DNA from: Candidatus Latescibacterota bacterium
GTDB taxonomy: Bacteria > Latescibacterota > UBA2968
NCBI GenBank assembly: GCA_965198115.1
Contig: OZ240241.1
Span: 4,800,001-4,864,000, forward strand
DNA: 64,000 bases
Reading direction: 5' to 3'
Shown here in pieces: positions 5,393 through 12,412 of the stretch (position 1 is the first letter of the stretch; every line of letters begins with the position of its first letter). The translations under genes were made by a program, and so were the position numbers. The notes beneath the pieces were generated by a model that saw only the letters and a program-made list of their open reading frames with translations, made no database searches and was not told the DNA's origin.

Positions 5393-7371
5393 TAAACCTT
5401 GGTAAGCCCCCGGCTCTGCCGGGGAGACTCCCAGAGTTTGACAGTTCCAGAAATATGTAAGAGCCTCCCTTGCCGTGGACCGCTCAAAGCACACGGAAGG
5501 AAGGCTCTCGAGCTCAGGTCAATAGGTGTGTAAAAGAAATCAGGCGGCCATCTTCCCGGCTTCGACCTGCGGTCCGGTTGAGTGTTTCTGATCGTAGACT
5601 TGTTGTAGCAAGTGTGGCGCGGTGAGTTTCCTGAATCGGCTCTCTGCGACCTTGAGCGTACGCCAGATGAGAGCCGTGGCGTTCCTGACTTTCTTGAATC
5701 GCCTGGCGGCGTTTGTGCGAAGCCGAACGGAAGCAAAGGGGCTCTCGACGACGTTCGTGGTTCTCAGGTGTTTCCAGTGTTCCTTCGGGAAGTCGTAGAA
5801 CGTGACCATCCGATCCCAGTTTCTTTCGAGCGTCTCCACGGCGGCAGGGAACTGTGAGCGATACCGTGCGGCAAAGCGTTTCCGGAGCTTCTCGGCCTCC
5901 TTTTTCGTGCCGGCATAGGGGATCTGGACGAGCAGTGCGCGGGCTTCAGCCTGTGCACGCTTGGCGACCTTGTCGAGCACGTTGAGGATCTTGTGGTTCC
6001 AGCACCGTTGTTGCCGGCTCTCTGGCCAGACCTGATCAACGGCCGCCCAGATGCCCATATTCCCGTCCGCGGCGATCAGGACAGGATGTTCGAGCCCGCG
6101 ATCCCGGAGATCCCGGAGCACCGTGAGCCAGGATTCTGTAGACTCTCGATAACCGGGTTCTATCGCCAGGATCTCCTTGCTGCCGTCGCTCATCGCGCCG
6201 ATCACGACCAGCAGACACGCCTTCTCGCGCTCGAGCCCGGCTTTGACGTAGATGCCATCAGCCCAGGCGTAGACCAGTTCGCGATTATCCAGACGCCTTT
6301 CTTTCCAGTCCTGGAAGTCGACCTCCCACTTCCCTCGAAGACGAGCGATCGAGGTCGGCGAAAGCGGCGCGCCATCACCGAGCAGCGCACGCAAAGACAA
6401 CTCGAAGTCGCCCTGGGAGAGACCGTGGAGATAAAGGTCGGGAAGCAGATCTCCAATGGCCCTGGTTCTCCGGGCGAACAGGGGGAGGATGCGGCTTTCA
6501 AACCGCTCTTCCAGACCACGAACCCGGGGACGCCGGACCTTGATCGTTCCGCAGCTCGTCGAGAGACGCCGGGGCTTGCCGTAGCCGTTCCTGTAGCCCC
6601 TGGAGCTATCGACCTCGGCTCGGCGCTCATACCACGACCGGCCCAAGAACGCGGTCGCCTCCTCCTCCAGAATGGACTGGAACCGGCCCTGGATCTCTTC
6701 ACGGATCCAATCGTCAACCGTCTCCCACGTCGGCATGGACTTCAATGGGGCTCTATGCGTATGTTCCTTCACGGCGATCCTCCTTCCCAACCGGGCCTCT
6801 CACCCGGTTTTGTGTGAATCAACTATCTCACGGGAAGGGTAGGGTCGCCCTTTCTCTTTTTCCACACCTTTTGATTATAGCTCGTATGGGAGTGCAAGTA
6901 TGACGTTGTTTGGGTTCGGAAGTATCGTAGAAAAGTGTTGTATGGTGAAATTCGTCGCTATCTGGGCGAGGTGATTCGGGATCTGGCCGCACAGAAGGAA
7001 TGCCGTGTGGAAGAGGGTCACCTGCGATCCGACCATGTGCACACGCTGATTTCGATCCCGCCGAAGCACTCAGTAGCTCAGACGGTAGGGTTCATCAAAG
7101 GAAAGAGTGCGATTCACATTGCTCGGAACTATCTGGGACGCAGGTCGAACTTCACCGGGCAGCATTTCTGGGCAAGAGGCTACTGGGTCTCCACCGTTGG
7201 CAAGGATGAACAGACGGTTCGGGAGTATATCCAGAACCAGGAGCGGGAGGACCGGCGTCTCGACCAGCTCAACATTTTCAGGTAATCGCCACCTTTAGGT
7301 GGCGCTTGGTTTCCAACCGCTTTGAGCGGTTCACAAGTTTTCAAGCCTCCGGCTTTGCCGGAGGTCATGAC
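5393..7371 (+). mobile_element. tnpA: IS200/IS605-family (tnpA only) copy 1, disrupted by IS256
   Basis: Y1 HUH motif DHVH and FWARGY. Subterminal hairpins CCCCGGC..GCCGGGG and CCTCCGGC..GCCGGAGG. Matches 30012-30648 but the start codon region is deleted. Confidence 0.92.
5510..6883 (-). mobile_element. IS256-family element copy 1 (transposase 5540-6790)
   Basis: YRNGY, WADG, QRCWNHK, LRTTNVVES motifs. Imperfect IRs GAGCTCAGGTCAATAGGTGTG / GAGCTATAATCAAAAGGTGTG. Confidence 0.95.
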
Positions 7372-8801
7372 TCTCCCAAAGTTCTGTTTGGGGGTCGAAG
7401 TGGCTGATGCCGTTGTCAGTGGCGACCCAGACCGTGCCGTCCGCGTCGGGAAGGACCTCCCGCGAGGTTTCGCTGGCCAGACCATCACGCATCCTGTAGG
7501 TTCGCCAAGCTGCCTGACCTGAACCGGCATACGACCTGTATCGCGAGACACCCAGGCCGCCAGCACCCACGTACGTGCACCACAGATCCGAACCGACTAC
7601 CTGAAATCCCCTTGCCTTATTGCCCGGAAATCCTTCCTCGTAGCTCGACCAGGCGGTGCCGGTGAACCAGCTCATGCCGTTGAGCGTGCCGGCCCAGATA
7701 GTGCCGTCGGATGACTGACCGAAGCCGTAGATCCGATTGTGGAGGAGGCCATCATCCGTGGTGTAATGGGTCCAGGGAGTCTGCCCTGAGTCTGCCGAAG
7801 GGTCGAAATGCATCACACCATCGCCGACCAGGCCCTTTCCAGCCCGGGCCAGACATTGGTGCCGAACCAGATGTCTCCGCTGGCTACAACGAAAGGAGAA
7901 TGGAGTCGCTCGGCATCAACGCCAGGGTCCAGAACCTGCCAGGACTGTCCATCGTAACGGCTGACCGCTGCCTTTCCGTCCCTGCTGCCGGCCACCCAGA
8001 AGGTGCTGTCAGTGGGGTGATAAGTCAGACCCAAACTGCCTCTGATAGCACTACTTGAGCCAATCGACAGGCGCTGGAGACCCATGTCAGATGCTGTGTG
8101 GGTCTCCCACCGACCTGCCACGTGCCTACACCATCCTCTTGATTGAGCCCCGAGGAACCACACTGAGCCGTCGTCGGTGGCTGTCATAGCCCCGTAGGGG
8201 GGGTCGAGCAGTCCTTCCGTGGGTCCGTAGAGCACCCAGTTCTTGCCGTCGTAGCGAACTGGACCGTCGTCGGTCACGAACCATGTGGAGCCGTCCGGTG
8301 CGCGATGACCACCCCCAAGCGCACGACCTACATCAAATCGCGTGCGGAAGTGCTCCCGAACCCGAATCCGGTATGCGTGAGGGCGTTGGTAGGGAGATAG
8401 CCACAACGAGCCGCTGCGGCTTAAGCGGGCGTAGAGGGCCCCGCTTGGCTTTAGGGCAGAATCCACAACCCGCCAGCCCTCGCCAGTAAAGGTCACAATG
8501 TCGCCGTTCGTGCTGACCGACAAGATTCGTCTGTCCGGCGTCTCCCAGACGGAGAGGTGCTTCACATCGGCGAGACCATCCGCAGACCGGTATACGGTCC
8601 ATCCATCATCCTTATACCGAACGATGGCCGGCACGTCCCAGGATGTGGCCCAAACCGACCCATCTGACGTTTGAACGACCTCGACGTAGACGAGACCAGG
8701 AAGGCCCTGCTCCGGACCGAACACCGACCATTCGCCGCCACGGTAGCGGAGCAGTCCCTGCCCCTTCGAAGGGGAATTATAACTAATCGTAACCAAAACG
8801 C

Positions 8802-8830
8802 TTGACTTTCGTATTCCCTGTGGTTACTAT
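8802..8830 (+). promoter_or_regulatory. Sigma70-like promoter of the IS1595 transposase
   Basis: TTGACT-17 nt-TACTAT, 36 nt upstream of ATG 8867. Confidence 0.6.
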
Positions 8831-8866
8831 TAGTATATAAATCAACCACAAATCAAGGGGGATACG

Positions 8867-9799
8867 ATGGCCAAGTCAGGACCAGGCAAGCACTTCAGGA
8901 AGGGACTTTCGCTGTTGGAGGTCATGCAGATGTTCCCCGACAATACATCGGCAGAGGAATGGATTGCACAATGCCGTTGGGACGGCGAACCCGCTTGTCC
9001 GCATTGCGGGGGTGTCAACGTTCAAACCGGCGCGAAGCATCCGAGCCAGCCCTACCGGTGCCGCGAGTGTCGGAATTTCTTCAGTGTAAAGACGGGCACC
9101 GCGATGGCGGGGAGCAACCTGGGTTATCAGGTGTGGGCGATCGCCGTCTACCTGCTGGCTACGGGCCTAAAGGGCCAAGCGTCCATGAAGCTGCACCGCG
9201 ATCTTGATATTTCACAGAAAGCCGCATGGTTTCTGGCGCACCGGCTACGGGAGACGTGGGATGATCGCAAAGCGCAGTTCAACGGGCCGGTGGAAGCCGA
9301 TGAGTGCTACATCGGTGGGGTTGAAAAGAACAAGCATATGAACATGCGGGCCAATCTGGGCCGGGGTCCGAGCGGGAAGACGGCCATCGTCGGAATGAAG
9401 GATCGGGCAACCGGCAAGGTGGCCGCCCGTTTGGTTGAATCGACCGACAGACTGACGCTGCAAGGCTTTGTGCAGAACAATGTTGTGGAGGGTGCGAAGG
9501 TCTACACGGACGAATCGGCGGGCTACAAAGGGCTGGCGAATCACGAGACAGTCAAGCACTCTGTGTCCGAGTATGTGAATGGCCAAGCGCACACGAACGG
9601 CGTGGAGAGTTTCTGGGCACTCCTCAAGCGTGGCTATCACGGCACCTACCATCGTATGAGCCCCAAGCACTTACAGCGCTACGTCAACGAGTTCAGCGGG
9701 CGTCACAACATCCGACTGCTCGATACCGTCCACCAGATGCGGGCTATCATCCGTGGTCTCGAAGGCAAGCGGCTTCGTTACCGGGAGCTTACGGCGTGA
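8867..9799 (+). CDS. IS1595-family transposase (zinc ribbon + DDE)
   Basis: CPHCG..CREC, VEADE, VYTDE, HTNGVESFW..LKRG, KHLQRYVNEF. Confidence 0.97.
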   Translation: MAKSGPGKHFRKGLSLLEVMQMFPDNTSAEEWIAQCRWDGEPACPHCGGVNVQTGAKHPSQPYRCRECRNFFSVKTGTAMAGSNLGYQVWAIAVYLLATGLKGQASMKLHRDLDISQKAAWFLAHRLRETWDDRKAQFNGPVEADECYIGGVEKNKHMNMRANLGRGPSGKTAIVGMKDRATGKVAARLVESTDRLTLQGFVQNNVVEGAKVYTDESAGYKGLANHETVKHSVSEYVNGQAHTNGVESFWALLKRGYHGTYHRMSPKHLQRYVNEFSGRHNIRLLDTVHQMRAIIRGLEGKRLRYRELTA

Positions 9800-9843
9800 G
9801 CGACCCCAAAGCGCACGTTCGACACCTTTATGGAGGTCAGAAA

Positions 9844-10356
9844 ATGAAGCCAATGACTCAACTTATTCATGGAATTGAGGAAAAAGACAAACTCTTTTTC
9901 GGCTTATCGGACACACTCGACGTCAAAGCAAGCGTTTCATTGATTCTGATCACGTTTCTGTCTGCACAAACCGCTTATTTTCTTAACCTCGACACTGCAC
10001 ACGCAGTTGTATTATTTTCCCAAACTCTTTCTGCAATAGTTCTTAGTGTGGGCGGAGTTCTGGCACTGAGTATTCTCTGGCCACGCTACCATGAGACCGA
10101 AAGCATAGAGAAAATGGATCTCTGGTATCAAGAACTAAAAAAGTGTTTTGAAGGTGAAGCGGAGGCCGACCAAAAAACTAATGAACTGTTTGAACGTGGA
10201 AGGTTCGATGGTCTGAAGAAACAAGTAAGCCATAACCGCTCCATCGTTAGACGGAAAGCAAGCCTCGCCGAGTGGTGCTATCGATGTATAGTGCTCTCTG
10301 TTGTGTTAAATATCGCGTGCTTTCTCTTACACTTCGCTAACCGAAACCTTTCTTGA
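9844..10356 (+). CDS. Three-TM membrane protein, Pycsar-effector (DUF5706)-like, IS1595 cargo
   Basis: GGAGG RBS. LDVKAS+TM1, TM2 ending LWPR, NRSIVRRK before TM3. Lower GC than host genes. Confidence 0.6.
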   Translation: MKPMTQLIHGIEEKDKLFFGLSDTLDVKASVSLILITFLSAQTAYFLNLDTAHAVVLFSQTLSAIVLSVGGVLALSILWPRYHETESIEKMDLWYQELKKCFEGEAEADQKTNELFERGRFDGLKKQVSHNRSIVRRKASLAEWCYRCIVLSVVLNIACFLLHFANRNLS

Positions 10357-10468
10357 CTTGTTCTGGCGGCGGAGGCGTCGGCGATGGCGTGGGCGCAGGC
10401 GCAGGCGCAGGCGCAGGCGCAGGCGGTGGTTCATTCTGTTTTTCGTCGTTGTTTTTTTCGTCAGCCAT
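10337..10468 (-). CDS. 43-aa proline-rich micro-protein, convergent with and overlapping the TM gene
   Basis: MADEKNNDEKQNEPPPAPAPAPAPAPTPSPTPPPPEQVKKGFG*. Below the ORF-track cutoff. Confidence 0.55.
   Translation of the reverse strand: MADEKNNDEKQNEPPPAPAPAPAPAPTPSPTPPPPEQVKKGFG
10394..10423. repeat. (CGCAGG)5 hexanucleotide tandem repeat encoding (PA)5
   Basis: Directly visible. Confidence 0.9.
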
Positions 10469-10559
10469 TTGAGTTCTTTCTGTGGAGGTTAATTATGGAC
10501 GATTCATCTACTGTCAAGTCTGACAGGGAAGATTTATGGGAATGCGCGTAGATAAGGGC

Positions 10560-10772
10560 TTAAGGGGATTGGCGTCGGCTTCGATATTTTCCAGTCTTTA
10601 ACTGAAATGTGTTACGTGATACATTTTGGATGTTCTTTCCCTTCGCGCGGGCACTACCGATTCGACCGCGCACTTGGTTTGTCGACAATCCCATTTCTTT
10701 TGCCAGATCCTTGACGTGTGCACCATTTGGATATTTCGCGAATAACTCGATAAGGTCGTGGTAACTCTGCAT
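10560..10772 (-). CDS. Small winged-HTH protein (70 aa), IS1595 cargo
   Basis: HVKDLAKEMGLSTNQVRGRI HTH pattern. GAGG RBS. Confidence 0.65.
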   Translation of the reverse strand: MQSYHDLIELFAKYPNGAHVKDLAKEMGLSTNQVRGRIGSARAKGKNIQNVSRNTFQLKTGKYRSRRQSP

Positions 10773-10848
10773 GCATACCTCTATCGCTACAAGACTTTCA
10801 ATATGGGGTTGCTTTGCATAAACAGCCCGGCAGGATGGCAGGCTGCCG

Positions 10849-10872
10849 ATATGATCCCATATGAGATCATAT
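10849..10872. promoter_or_regulatory. Palindrome ATATGATC-N8-GATCATAT, candidate operator
   Basis: Perfect 8-bp inverted repeat upstream of the divergent HTH gene. Confidence 0.4.
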
Positions 10873-10896
10873 TCTGGACCCTAAGAAAGAAAGCCA

Positions 10897-11001
10897 ATGC
10901 CCGATAGGATACTGGACACCCCAGAAGATATCATGCGGGCGCTTGTGACTACACCGCTCAAAGCAAAGGCCGAAAACAAGAAACTCGGTGTGCGGAGGTG
11001 A
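10897..11001 (+). pseudogene. Degenerate copy of the IS1595 terminal micro-ORF
   Basis: MPDRILDTPEDIMRALVTTP aligns with MPEPIPDTPENIMKAFIKTP at 11478-11651. Confidence 0.7.
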
Positions 11002-11004
11002 AAA

Positions 11005-11376
11005 ATGAGTAACGACGAACAATATAAAGTCATTGGGCTCTTGGTGATTCAACACCAAGAGCAGCAACGCCATGTGGTCTGCGTCGAGGAAAAGCGGAAG
11101 AAGCTGGTCTCCGCTTTGCGGAAAACACAGGAGCTGTTAGAGGGGAGCGATTCTATCATGATGACCAGGGCAGACAACGATTCCCTGACCATCGATCAGC
11201 CATCCGGTGGATTGGTGGTAATAAGCCCTGATCCCCCCACAACGCATATAGAATATCCAAGCTTTGCGGAGTTGCAGAAATTCATCGCCGATTACAAGGA
11301 AGCGATCAACGCATTCAATGAAGTCGAGAGCCAATTGAAAAAGATACACCCCGGCTTATTCAGCAACTCGGTATGA
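11005..11376 (+). CDS. Hypothetical coiled-coil protein, IS1595 cargo
   Basis: 123-aa ORF with GGAGG RBS. No recognisable family. Confidence 0.6.
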   Translation: MSNDEQYKVIGLLVIQHQEQQRHVVCVEEKRKKLVSALRKTQELLEGSDSIMMTRADNDSLTIDQPSGGLVVISPDPPTTHIEYPSFAELQKFIADYKEAINAFNEVESQLKKIHPGLFSNSV

Positions 11377-11477
11377 TCGCATTATGTTTTCCCCCAGTTG
11401 GGTTTGTTCATAATCTTCATTATAAAACGGGCAAAACGTAAAATCCAACTAATTGTGCGATGCGAAGGAGTAGAACC

Positions 11478-11651
11478 ATGAATGACGAAAAGCAGAAGCG
11501 CCCGCGCGGCCGACCGCCGAAGCATCTGATGCCGGAGCCGATCCCCGACACCCCCGAAAACATCATGAAAGCGTTCATCAAGACGCCGCCACGGAAACGG
11601 GAAGATTGGAAGTTTGTGCAGGAACGTGAGGAAAAGAAGCGGGCCACTTAG
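11478..11651 (+). CDS. 57-aa AT-hook micro-protein at the IS1595 right end
   Basis: AAGGAG RBS. KRPRGRPPK AT-hook followed by PIPDTPENI. Stop about 10 nt before the IR. Confidence 0.65.
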   Translation: MNDEKQKRPRGRPPKHLMPEPIPDTPENIMKAFIKTPPRKREDWKFVQEREEKKRAT

Positions 11652-12280
11652 CAGAAAGGGTTTGGTTACGATTGGTTATAATTCCCCTTCGAAGCAATCC
11701 ACAGAGTCCCGTCGGCCTCCTCGGTCAAAGACATCACATCAAGCGAATCCGTCGGGGTCTCGACAACAGACCATTTGCGGCCGTCGAATCGGCTCAAGCC
11801 TCCGGACCCCCCCAGAGCGAGCGTGAATCCTGCCCACAGACCCCTATCTCCCGATGGTTTGAGACTTCGCCACCAGAAGGTATCGCTCGCAAGACCGTCC
11901 TTCACAGTGTAGGTCCGGACGCTGTCGGCCAGCATCCGAGTGATGCCTCCGAGTGTACCGAACCACAGTGCGCCGTCTGGCGTCTGGGTAACTGTCCTTA
12001 CGTTATCCGAACCGAGACCATCCTCGGTTGTGTAGGTCTGGAAGGAGATTCCGTCGTAACGCAGGGCTCCAATGCCGGTCGCGAACCACATATTGCCTTC
12101 GCGGTCTTCAAAAACGTCGTGAACCGGACCTGGCAGATTGAACTCGGTCCATCGCCAGGGCTCTGAATACGGCTCGGGCTGAGGCGCGACGGTGAGCGTG
12201 TCCACGGCGTAGACCGGGACTGTCAACAGCAAGCAGAGGATGGTGGCATAAGTGCGCATCGCAACCCAAGATGCGACCCG

Positions 12281-12412
12281 CCCTTCGCTCGGACAAGCGC
12301 GAGCTACGGCGGGCAGGCGGCGGGGAACGGCGGGCAAGCCCTCCTCCGCTCGATAGGGCACAAGCTTCCACCTCCGCGTGAACGCTACGGCGGACAGGTC
12401 GGGCGGGCAGGC
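12281..12412. repeat. Cluster of REP-like (GCTAC)GGCGG(G/A)CA(A/G)G repeats
   Basis: GCTACGGCGGGCAGG, ACGGCGGGCAAG, GCTACGGCGGACAGG and GGCGGGCAGG within 130 bp. Confidence 0.5.

Follow-up and report, generated by a model that had tools for sequence, protein, structure and literature searches.

A conserved companion micro-protein family in an IS1595-family transporter insertion sequence with likely mosaic cargo

The stretch of DNA analysed here, hereafter the window, comprises 64,000 nt from the genome assembly of a Candidatus Latescibacterota bacterium (GCA_965198115.1, contig OZ240241.1, positions 4,800,001 to 4,864,000). Within it, an insertion sequence (IS) of the IS1595 family interrupts a gene for a protein with Reg_prop beta-propeller repeats and carries a transposase gene, four cargo open reading frames (ORFs) and, next to its right end, a 57-aa micro-ORF, which is the main subject of this report (Table 1). 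The element spans 8772–11686 (2915 bp), its two 26-bp terminal inverted repeats (IRs) differ at one position, and an 8-bp target-site duplication (TSD), CTTCGAAG, lies on each side. Excising it in silico rejoins the beta-propeller gene as a single 541-aa frame on the minus strand. A first-pass annotation of this DNA had proposed an intact element with IRs and an 8-bp TSD, which the ends and the restored host frame bear out, although the span it gave, 8764–11694, takes in both CTTCGAAG copies. It had also described about 1.9 kb of lower-GC cargo. The GC content is indeed lower between transposase and micro-ORF (47% across 9800–11477) than in the transposase (59%), although the stretch so measured is 1.7 kb long. 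In one sequencing run, possibly made from the source sample, short-read contigs cross each element end and one contains both the terminal micro-ORF and a second, internal copy; such contigs show presence only. Among the joints listed from these contigs, of which one was not displayed, no circle or empty-site joint of the element was found. At the DNA level, none of 61 relatives yielded a close sibling of the element as a whole, and the closest transposase match among the other 167 genomes of the phylum was ~59%. All three complete GGGAATTA-ended elements of this genome have the micro-ORF, each with different cargo.

Table 1 Features of the IS1595-family element and of the host gene that it interrupts (positions are those of the window).
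Feature	Position	Strand	Remark
Host gene, 3′ part, Reg_prop beta-propeller repeats	7813..8771	-	Interrupted by element
Left TSD, CTTCGAAG	8764..8771	.	Palindromic
Left IR, 26 bp, starts GGGAATTATA	8772..8797	+
Sigma-70-like promoter match, TTGACT-17-TACTAT	8802..8830	+	Upstream of transposase; putative function
IS1595-family transposase, 310 aa	8867..9799	+	Zn ribbon and DDE domain; Pfam, NCBIfam
Fossil 3′ end of another IS1595 subgroup's transposase (KRTFDTFM)	9809..9832	+	'CGACACC echo' of the first-pass annotation
Cargo: 170-aa membrane protein	9844..10356	+	PycTM-like
Cargo: 43-aa proline-rich peptide (MADEK...PPP)	10337..10468	-	Convergent; travels with membrane gene
Cargo: 70-aa HTH-like protein	10560..10772	-	Weak Pfam HTH hits; recurs in other elements
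Internal short micro-ORF, 34 aa	10897..11001	+	Open frame; without RGRP arm and W44
Cargo: 123-aa protein	11005..11376	+	Function unassigned
Terminal 57-aa micro-ORF (RGRP...MPEPIPDTPENI...PP...W)	11478..11651	+	GGAG leader; conserved IS1595 companion gene
Right IR, 26 bp	11661..11686	-
Right TSD, CTTCGAAG	11687..11694	.
Host gene, 5′ part (same interrupted gene)	11695..12361	-

The transposase scored 130 bits with the Pfam DDE_Tnp_IS1595 domain (PF12762) and 173 bits with NF033547 (cut-off 75), and its N-terminal zinc (Zn) ribbon 26.9 bits with Zn_ribbon_IS1595 (PF12760; cut-off 25.4). Family members with passenger genes were reportedly set apart as transporter insertion sequences (tIS) by Siguier, Gagnevin and Chandler in 2009. 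With four non-transposition ORFs (9844–11376) between its IRs, the window's element is an intact IS1595-family tIS, and its type as such is ordinary. Two published sources give as family features a DDE transposase, a Zn ribbon in all groups but IS1016, ~25-bp IRs and an 8-bp TSD (PMC8101967, PMC5704250), and one of them names MTnSag1 and tISCpe8 as examples of tIS (PMC5704250). With these two, the element shares a Zn-ribbon and DDE transposase, IRs of about that length (here 26 bp with one mismatch), the 8-bp TSD, AT-rich targets and passengers within the IRs; unlike them, it bears a conserved, co-inherited small gene, and its cargo appears mosaic, with fossils of other IS1595 elements. The ends read GGGAATTAT and fit the GGnnATTAT pattern of the ISNwi subgroup, which has passenger-carrying members, and the element is a candidate member of that subgroup (sizes range from 1.3 to 6.5 kb among the 73 relatives assembled below). 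We know of no small companion gene in that subgroup. ISNwi is listed among the IS1595 subgroups in PMC8101967, which describes the family with a single transposase gene. Upstream of the transposase, 14 nt of the inner IR recur in inverted form (8782–8795/8821–8834); this inverted copy overlaps the promoter-like site and is a possible site of transposase autorepression.

The intact 57-aa ORF that the first-pass annotation had placed at the right IR was confirmed and stops 9 nt before it. It has 51 close homologues, and its relatives form 705 clusters at 50% identity. Among 138 aligned members, the near-invariant residues are P19, I22, D24, E27, N28, P37 and W44. Pairwise differences between the 42 copies that lie within elements concentrate at the third codon position (0.39/0.33/0.59 for the three positions), and single-base codon differences were synonymous in 9775 cases and non-synonymous in 5050. 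Given this synonymous bias across copies, the micro-ORF is a real gene family under protein-level selection. The peptide matched no family in Pfam (E up to 0.1), NCBIfam, PHROGs or PADLOC, nothing among PDB sequences better than E 1.4, nothing in phage, plasmid and viral-contig collections, and only hypothetical clusters without Pfam in the cluster Atlas. An AlphaFold2 model (mean pLDDT 88, pTM 0.41) predicted helices at residues 26–35 and 45–56 with extended linkers; it had no Foldseek match in the PDB and a best VIA Z of 2.1, and searches with this predicted structure point to neither a known nor a new fold. No title or abstract found by literature searches on IS1595 and accessory proteins described the peptide; ISfinder and the defining reviews, in which it may already be annotated, were not covered.

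Distant peptides of three further subtypes (YxPxKxExEExVxIDAxPEE..., KDIKLPASAEEIAR... and IKIxxTPEEVxR...; loci L144, L146, L149, L152, L180, L186, L189, L211 and L214) have a PDTPENI-type core helix, which suggests that a wider peptide superfamily may extend across IS1595 subgroups. Near-identical, eroded micro-ORF variants with a changed C-terminus were read at five loci (L002, L023, L027, L029 and L030) in one genome, G081, which has 11 matches and in which a distant (34%) IS1595 transposase is present many times over.

Two samples place the family in its genomic context. The peptide-first sample came from two locus scans, both seeded by one close alignment (A1), which biases it towards close members. 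It consisted of 104 loci (24 from metagenomes and the best 80 of 184 genome hits) plus four from this genome, and includes redundant assemblies. An IS1595 transposase match lay within 8 kb at 78 of the 108 loci. The right-IR motif, itself derived from these elements, was found at no more than 100 nt from the micro-ORF at 53 of the 107 loci with enough flank, against 0.0008 expected per 100 nt in this genome; the predicted co-location with IS1595 right ends was thus recovered. From the 30 rows without a transposase, 20 distinct loci were examined, 12 of which have the IR motif with at most one mismatch within 600 nt, and two of which are borderline. IR pairs were obtained from 51 peptide-first loci, 41 of them with perfect TSDs (40 distinct). 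Near cargo-free elements of 1.4–1.5 kb keep the gene as well (of six elements shorter than 1.6 kb, five have it). The micro-ORF is found almost exclusively within IS1595 ends or next to them. Intact micro-ORFs with a right IR were also seen in transposase-less derivatives, at G000:C1 ~7232200–7232550 (L018) and at L059 and L060, two copies within one genome.

The transposase-first sample took 60 of the phylum's listed transposase matches and yielded 35 complete elements, or 34 after a duplicate was dropped. Pooled with 39 peptide-first elements (one of the 40 was dropped because its peptide lay outside the element), these gave 73 distinct elements. Named relatives come from Chloroflexota, Gemmatimonadota, Acidobacteriota, Pseudomonadota, Actinomycetota and Nitrospirota. 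In a quick tree of 69 transposases, presence of the micro-ORF was clustered. Peptide and transposase identities were correlated (Mantel rho 0.28, a value reached by 1 of 2000 shuffles, with kin not independent), and the nearest transposase neighbour was within the top three peptide neighbours in 22 of 38 cases.

We next compared siblings, that is, 14 pairs in which both elements have the close-type micro-ORF and transposases at least 74% identical in nucleotides. The two arms are common to siblings and the cargo between them differs: in 11 of the 14 pairs, homology breaks off no more than 7 nt from where the transposase ends and resumes 17–64 nt upstream of the DTPE motif of the micro-ORF (39–64 nt in 10 of the 11), while the remaining three pairs share cargo. 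At 74–88% identity, these limits of homology are limits of conserved coding and do not fix exact crossovers; nothing in them points into the DTPE motif.

The start of the window's cargo retains a trace of a donor. Behind the transposase, the KRTFDTFM fossil is identical at 20 of 24 nt to L200 6124–6147, with all four differences at third codon positions; only one other site in the 8.4-Mb genome reaches a 19/24 match to the transposase end. A module of membrane gene and proline-rich peptide (9829–10477) occurs twice in another genome, G037, at 83% nucleotide identity. In G037 the module immediately follows the stop codon of a different IS1595 transposase, which ends ...KRTFDTFMKGCFA, in a 2915-bp CGCAATTAG-ended element whose two copies have perfect TSDs and no micro-ORF hit. 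The fossil and the G037 arrangement together indicate that the first cargo gene brought along a short remnant of the transposase end of its donor. The first-pass annotation had taken this spot for a weak third echo of the micro-ORF. No micro-ORF copy is present (no hit of 8 bits or more and no matching frame), chance alone would place CGACACC in each element 0.47 times, and the GGAGG belongs to gene 9844, being conserved in G037 as that gene's own leader. A second case of sharing involves an element at C1:6.207 Mb of this genome, whose membrane cargo matches the cargo of a CGCAATTAG-type element (E 7e-22). The C1:6.207 Mb element also contains part of gene 11005, followed by the HTH gene and the proline-rich peptide, as an inverted block that keeps the window's order. 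Own-clade transposase-end fossils also lie inside two relatives, L102 and L131 (39 and 34 bits, null 5.3). Since the window's fossil is the transposase end of another subgroup, and the same cargo occurs in G037 without a micro-ORF, the cargo is likely mosaic and swapped between co-resident IS1595 elements. In this architecture and mosaic origin we have high confidence.

Among the individual cargo genes, 9844 resembles PycTM (PADLOC E 2e-6; Pfam 17.6 bits, under the 27.2 cut-off), with an Atlas score of 0.96 to a cluster that has PycTM on 37% of its members; the element contains no ORF for a pyrimidine cyclase, as in Pycsar, next to it. A second allele of this gene (9842–10343) on another contig of run X1 differs at 59 letters over ~500, with homology beginning at the start codon. 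A GGAGG-led frame of 18 codons (10497–10551, plus strand) starts where homology to the G037 module ends and is possibly the start of a truncated cargo gene. The HTH-like gene has homologues in OWN3, in L148 and in 7 other genomes of 168. For gene 11005, 44 nt of the 3′ part recur in the C1:6.207 Mb element, and no other match was found in 168 genomes. The proline-rich peptide (10434–10450), gene 11005 (11011–11027) and the micro-ORF (11481–11497) have an N-terminal NDE(K/Q) stretch in common; these stretches form inverted repeats of 17 nt (82–88%) and may be a compositional coincidence. To the left of the element, at 1.5–3 kb, lie a Mutator/IS256-family transposase (5540–6790, minus strand) and an IS200-like Y1 transposase (6935–7285, plus strand).

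In the related elements, a domain scan of 137 of the 177 cargo ORFs at least 100 aa long found the cargo rich in methyltransferases, restriction/HNH nucleases and Fic, SocA/Panacea, GmrSD and NYN domains. The cargo of one relative includes a tRNA gene (L069:6739–6812). A conserved non-coding motif of ~150 nt with covarying stems was observed in the cargo of ~24 of the 73 elements (at least 25 bits, null 4.3; 46 distinct hits, including L152:3568–3727, L135:4109–4257, L069:7734–7890 and L031:6138–6292). It had no Rfam hit at gathering score, and its reverse strand is weakly similar to sRNA-Xcc1 (RF02221, 24 bits, E 0.05). The motif often lies 60–140 nt upstream of small ORFs, at several loci the micro-ORF itself. 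It is absent from the window's element, and no hit better than E 2 was found in this genome.

As a whole, these observations are best explained, in our view with moderate confidence, by a tIS with an optional small protein that regulates or assists transposition, and with cargo made mosaic by nesting or illegitimate recombination. One IS1595 element would have inserted into another, followed by deletion, or the two would have been joined by illegitimate recombination; either way, scraps of the donor, such as transposase ends and companion genes, would be left in the cargo. That the small protein is a regulator of transposition, binding transposase or element ends, is plausible, though we would stop just short of calling it probable. 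The peptide is short, has a conserved hydrophobic and acidic core but no globular fold, is confined to one family and is dispensable, features which would fit folding on a partner, most simply the transposase. The conserved core around the helix (P19, I22, D24, E27, N28, P37, W44) would dock on the transposase or transpososome, while the basic RGRP arm would touch the minor groove near the element ends as an auxiliary DNA contact. The net effect would be to tune jumping, more likely to restrain it.

Several ISs encode accessory or regulatory proteins, namely InsA of IS1, OrfA of IS911/IS3, Inh of IS50, ORF121 of IS91 and TnpA/TnpB of IS66, and the peptide would resemble these as a second small element-encoded protein modulating transposition. 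It differs from them in that it has no sequence or family match and is not a truncated transposase product; it is also optional, 50–60 aa long and without a recognised fold. Its arm recalls the AT-hook and GRPR minor-groove motifs of HMGA, the Tc1/mariner linker and H-NS, being a K/R-rich stretch with RGRP that is conserved at the amino-acid level. In contrast to AT-hook proteins, RGRP is missing from many members (present in 75 of 138; GRP in 108) and is not the most conserved part. The window's peptide (P0001) contains KRPRGRPPK, so the RGRP core named by the first-pass annotation is there, but RGRP is followed by K or R in only 4 of 138 members, and the AT_hook profile of Pfam, with basic flanks on both sides, gave no hit at E up to 0.1. 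An AT-hook nature is, on this sequence evidence, a lead only.

A number of observations weigh against a regulatory role. Binding of the peptide to transposase or DNA is itself hypothetical. TSDs are AT-rich with the gene (0.73, n=39) and without it (0.83, n=28), so the micro-ORF is not a target selector, and we rejected that function for the AT-hook. The gene is optional. In the transposase-first sample, the close-type micro-ORF is present in only 6 of the 35 complete elements, and an iterated core profile, run with reversed decoys of which none passed, found any relative in 12 of 34 elements at a threshold of 9 bits and in 14 at 6.5 bits. L157, an element with no detected relative in a genome without a match to the close-type micro-ORF, occurs in two copies of identical sequence whose perfect TSDs differ, and has therefore transposed without it. 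Two well-supported transposase clades of the quick tree mostly lack the gene, 6 of the 20 distinct transposase-less loci have no clear IR, and position varies: of the 44 carriers that score at least 14 bits, 25 have the gene at the right IR, 13 have it at another place on the same strand, and in 6 it is on the opposite one. None of 39 longer hits that contain the peptide is a fusion to a full-length transposase, one joining a transposase 3′ fragment, and the co-divergence described above can also follow from plain co-inheritance and kinship alone. The proposal of a 'dedicated accessory component' stands insofar as the gene is a conserved companion with an enrichment at the right ends of IS1595 elements; for an optional gene, 'dedicated' goes too far. 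By eye only, four further loci (L145, L148, L149 and L180) look related to the micro-ORF.

A broader version of the regulatory role, which we offer more tentatively, makes the micro-ORF the founder of a large unnamed superfamily of 35–75-aa IS1595 accessory proteins that control jumping. Its members would share a helix of the form ~I-x-x-T/S-P-E-E/N-I/V-A-R-A-L and bind their cognate transposase and, through the RGRP arm, the element ends.

The main rival has the small protein act on host or cargo, for example in an antitoxin-like or anti-silencing role that favours persistence of the element or of its restriction/defence cargo, its nearness to the right IR being due to inheritance of the whole arm. 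We rank it first among the alternatives, albeit as unlikely, because the cargo of relatives is so rich in methyltransferases, nucleases and toxin–antitoxin domains. It would also fit a gene that is optional and can move or invert, and the sRNA-Xcc1-like motif just upstream of the micro-ORF in several loci. Yet the micro-ORF is kept in near cargo-free elements, no single cargo family goes with it, and the peptide is not found in phage or plasmid collections. Fusions cut both ways. Five of the 39 longer hits join the peptide to RhuM-family proteins and five to BstA-like proteins (PF26567), as a cargo role might lead one to expect; others, however, join it to unrelated HNH, Dam, ClpP, integrase and further sequences, at scattered junctions with the core kept in frame, as read-through from abutting cargo would give. 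The recurrent fusions are P0322, P0324, P0330, P0331 and P0335, and P0325, P0338, P0341, P0350 and P0357; in those read, the peptide is C-terminal except in P0357.

The first-pass annotation had instead seen the micro-ORF DNA as a recombination module at which cargo accumulates step by step, building up a cassette array with micro-ORF copies interspersed. The window's element does have two: the internal one resembles the family (E 4.6e-9; 41 bits with a DNA model whose null maximum was 6.5), adjoins gene 11005 and holds that gene's GGAGG (10994–10998) in its last codons, as had been noted, although its decay is unproven, the frame being open. Hairpins upstream of it are at background level (z-score -0.01). 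Local duplication was rejected as its source: the two copies are 67% identical over 60 nt, and 50 other family members come before P0001 in the ranking of hits of the internal copy, which is therefore likely an imported remnant of another element's small gene. With the DNA model, two copies occur only in the window's element among the 73; a wider protein profile finds two members in four (the window's, L102, L144 and L146) and never three. The three further two-member elements, and homology between two copies that could seed occasional homologous recombination, speak for the array; against it, the paired members differ strongly in each case, the supposed third echo is a transposase fossil, DTPE codons vary synonymously, unlike a DNA site, and the first cargo module is carried in G037 by an element with no micro-ORF hit. 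The sibling alignments proposed as a check did show varying cargo, but with limits at the transposase end and upstream of DTPE rather than in the motif. Integron gene-cassette arrays offer a comparison, in that both place small cargo genes in a variable slot that follows a gene of recombinase type. Unlike integrons, the element has no recombination site repeated between its cargo genes, codes only for a DDE transposase and no site-specific integrase, and carries cargo in both orientations. Capture by stepwise recombination at the micro-ORF is thus largely refuted, and we consider it very improbable.

Hardly credible, finally, is a conserved DNA or RNA feature beside the IR—a subterminal site or structure in which the reading frame is incidental—since the frequent fixed spacing (~40–60 nt from where the profile match stops to the edge of the element) is outweighed by third-position bias with synonymous codon spread at nearly every conserved residue, by intact copies at a distance from the IR and in the reverse orientation, and by in-frame protein fusions that retain the core.

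The locus thus holds a known kind of element together with a real, unannotated companion micro-protein family. IS1595 elements have been described as one-gene transposons, sometimes with passengers; a companion family of at least 705 clusters provides a handle on their regulation, and a natural 1.4-kb element with little beyond transposase and peptide exists and can be assayed. Should the broader superfamily be borne out, it would give the first trans-acting accessory factor for IS1595/Merlin-type transposons. The fossil junction, in turn, shows a source of passengers, namely that IS1595 subgroups exchange them via the slot that follows the stop codon of the transposase, whereby IS1595 elements would form a cross-phylum pool of restriction, toxin–antitoxin and defence-like genes.

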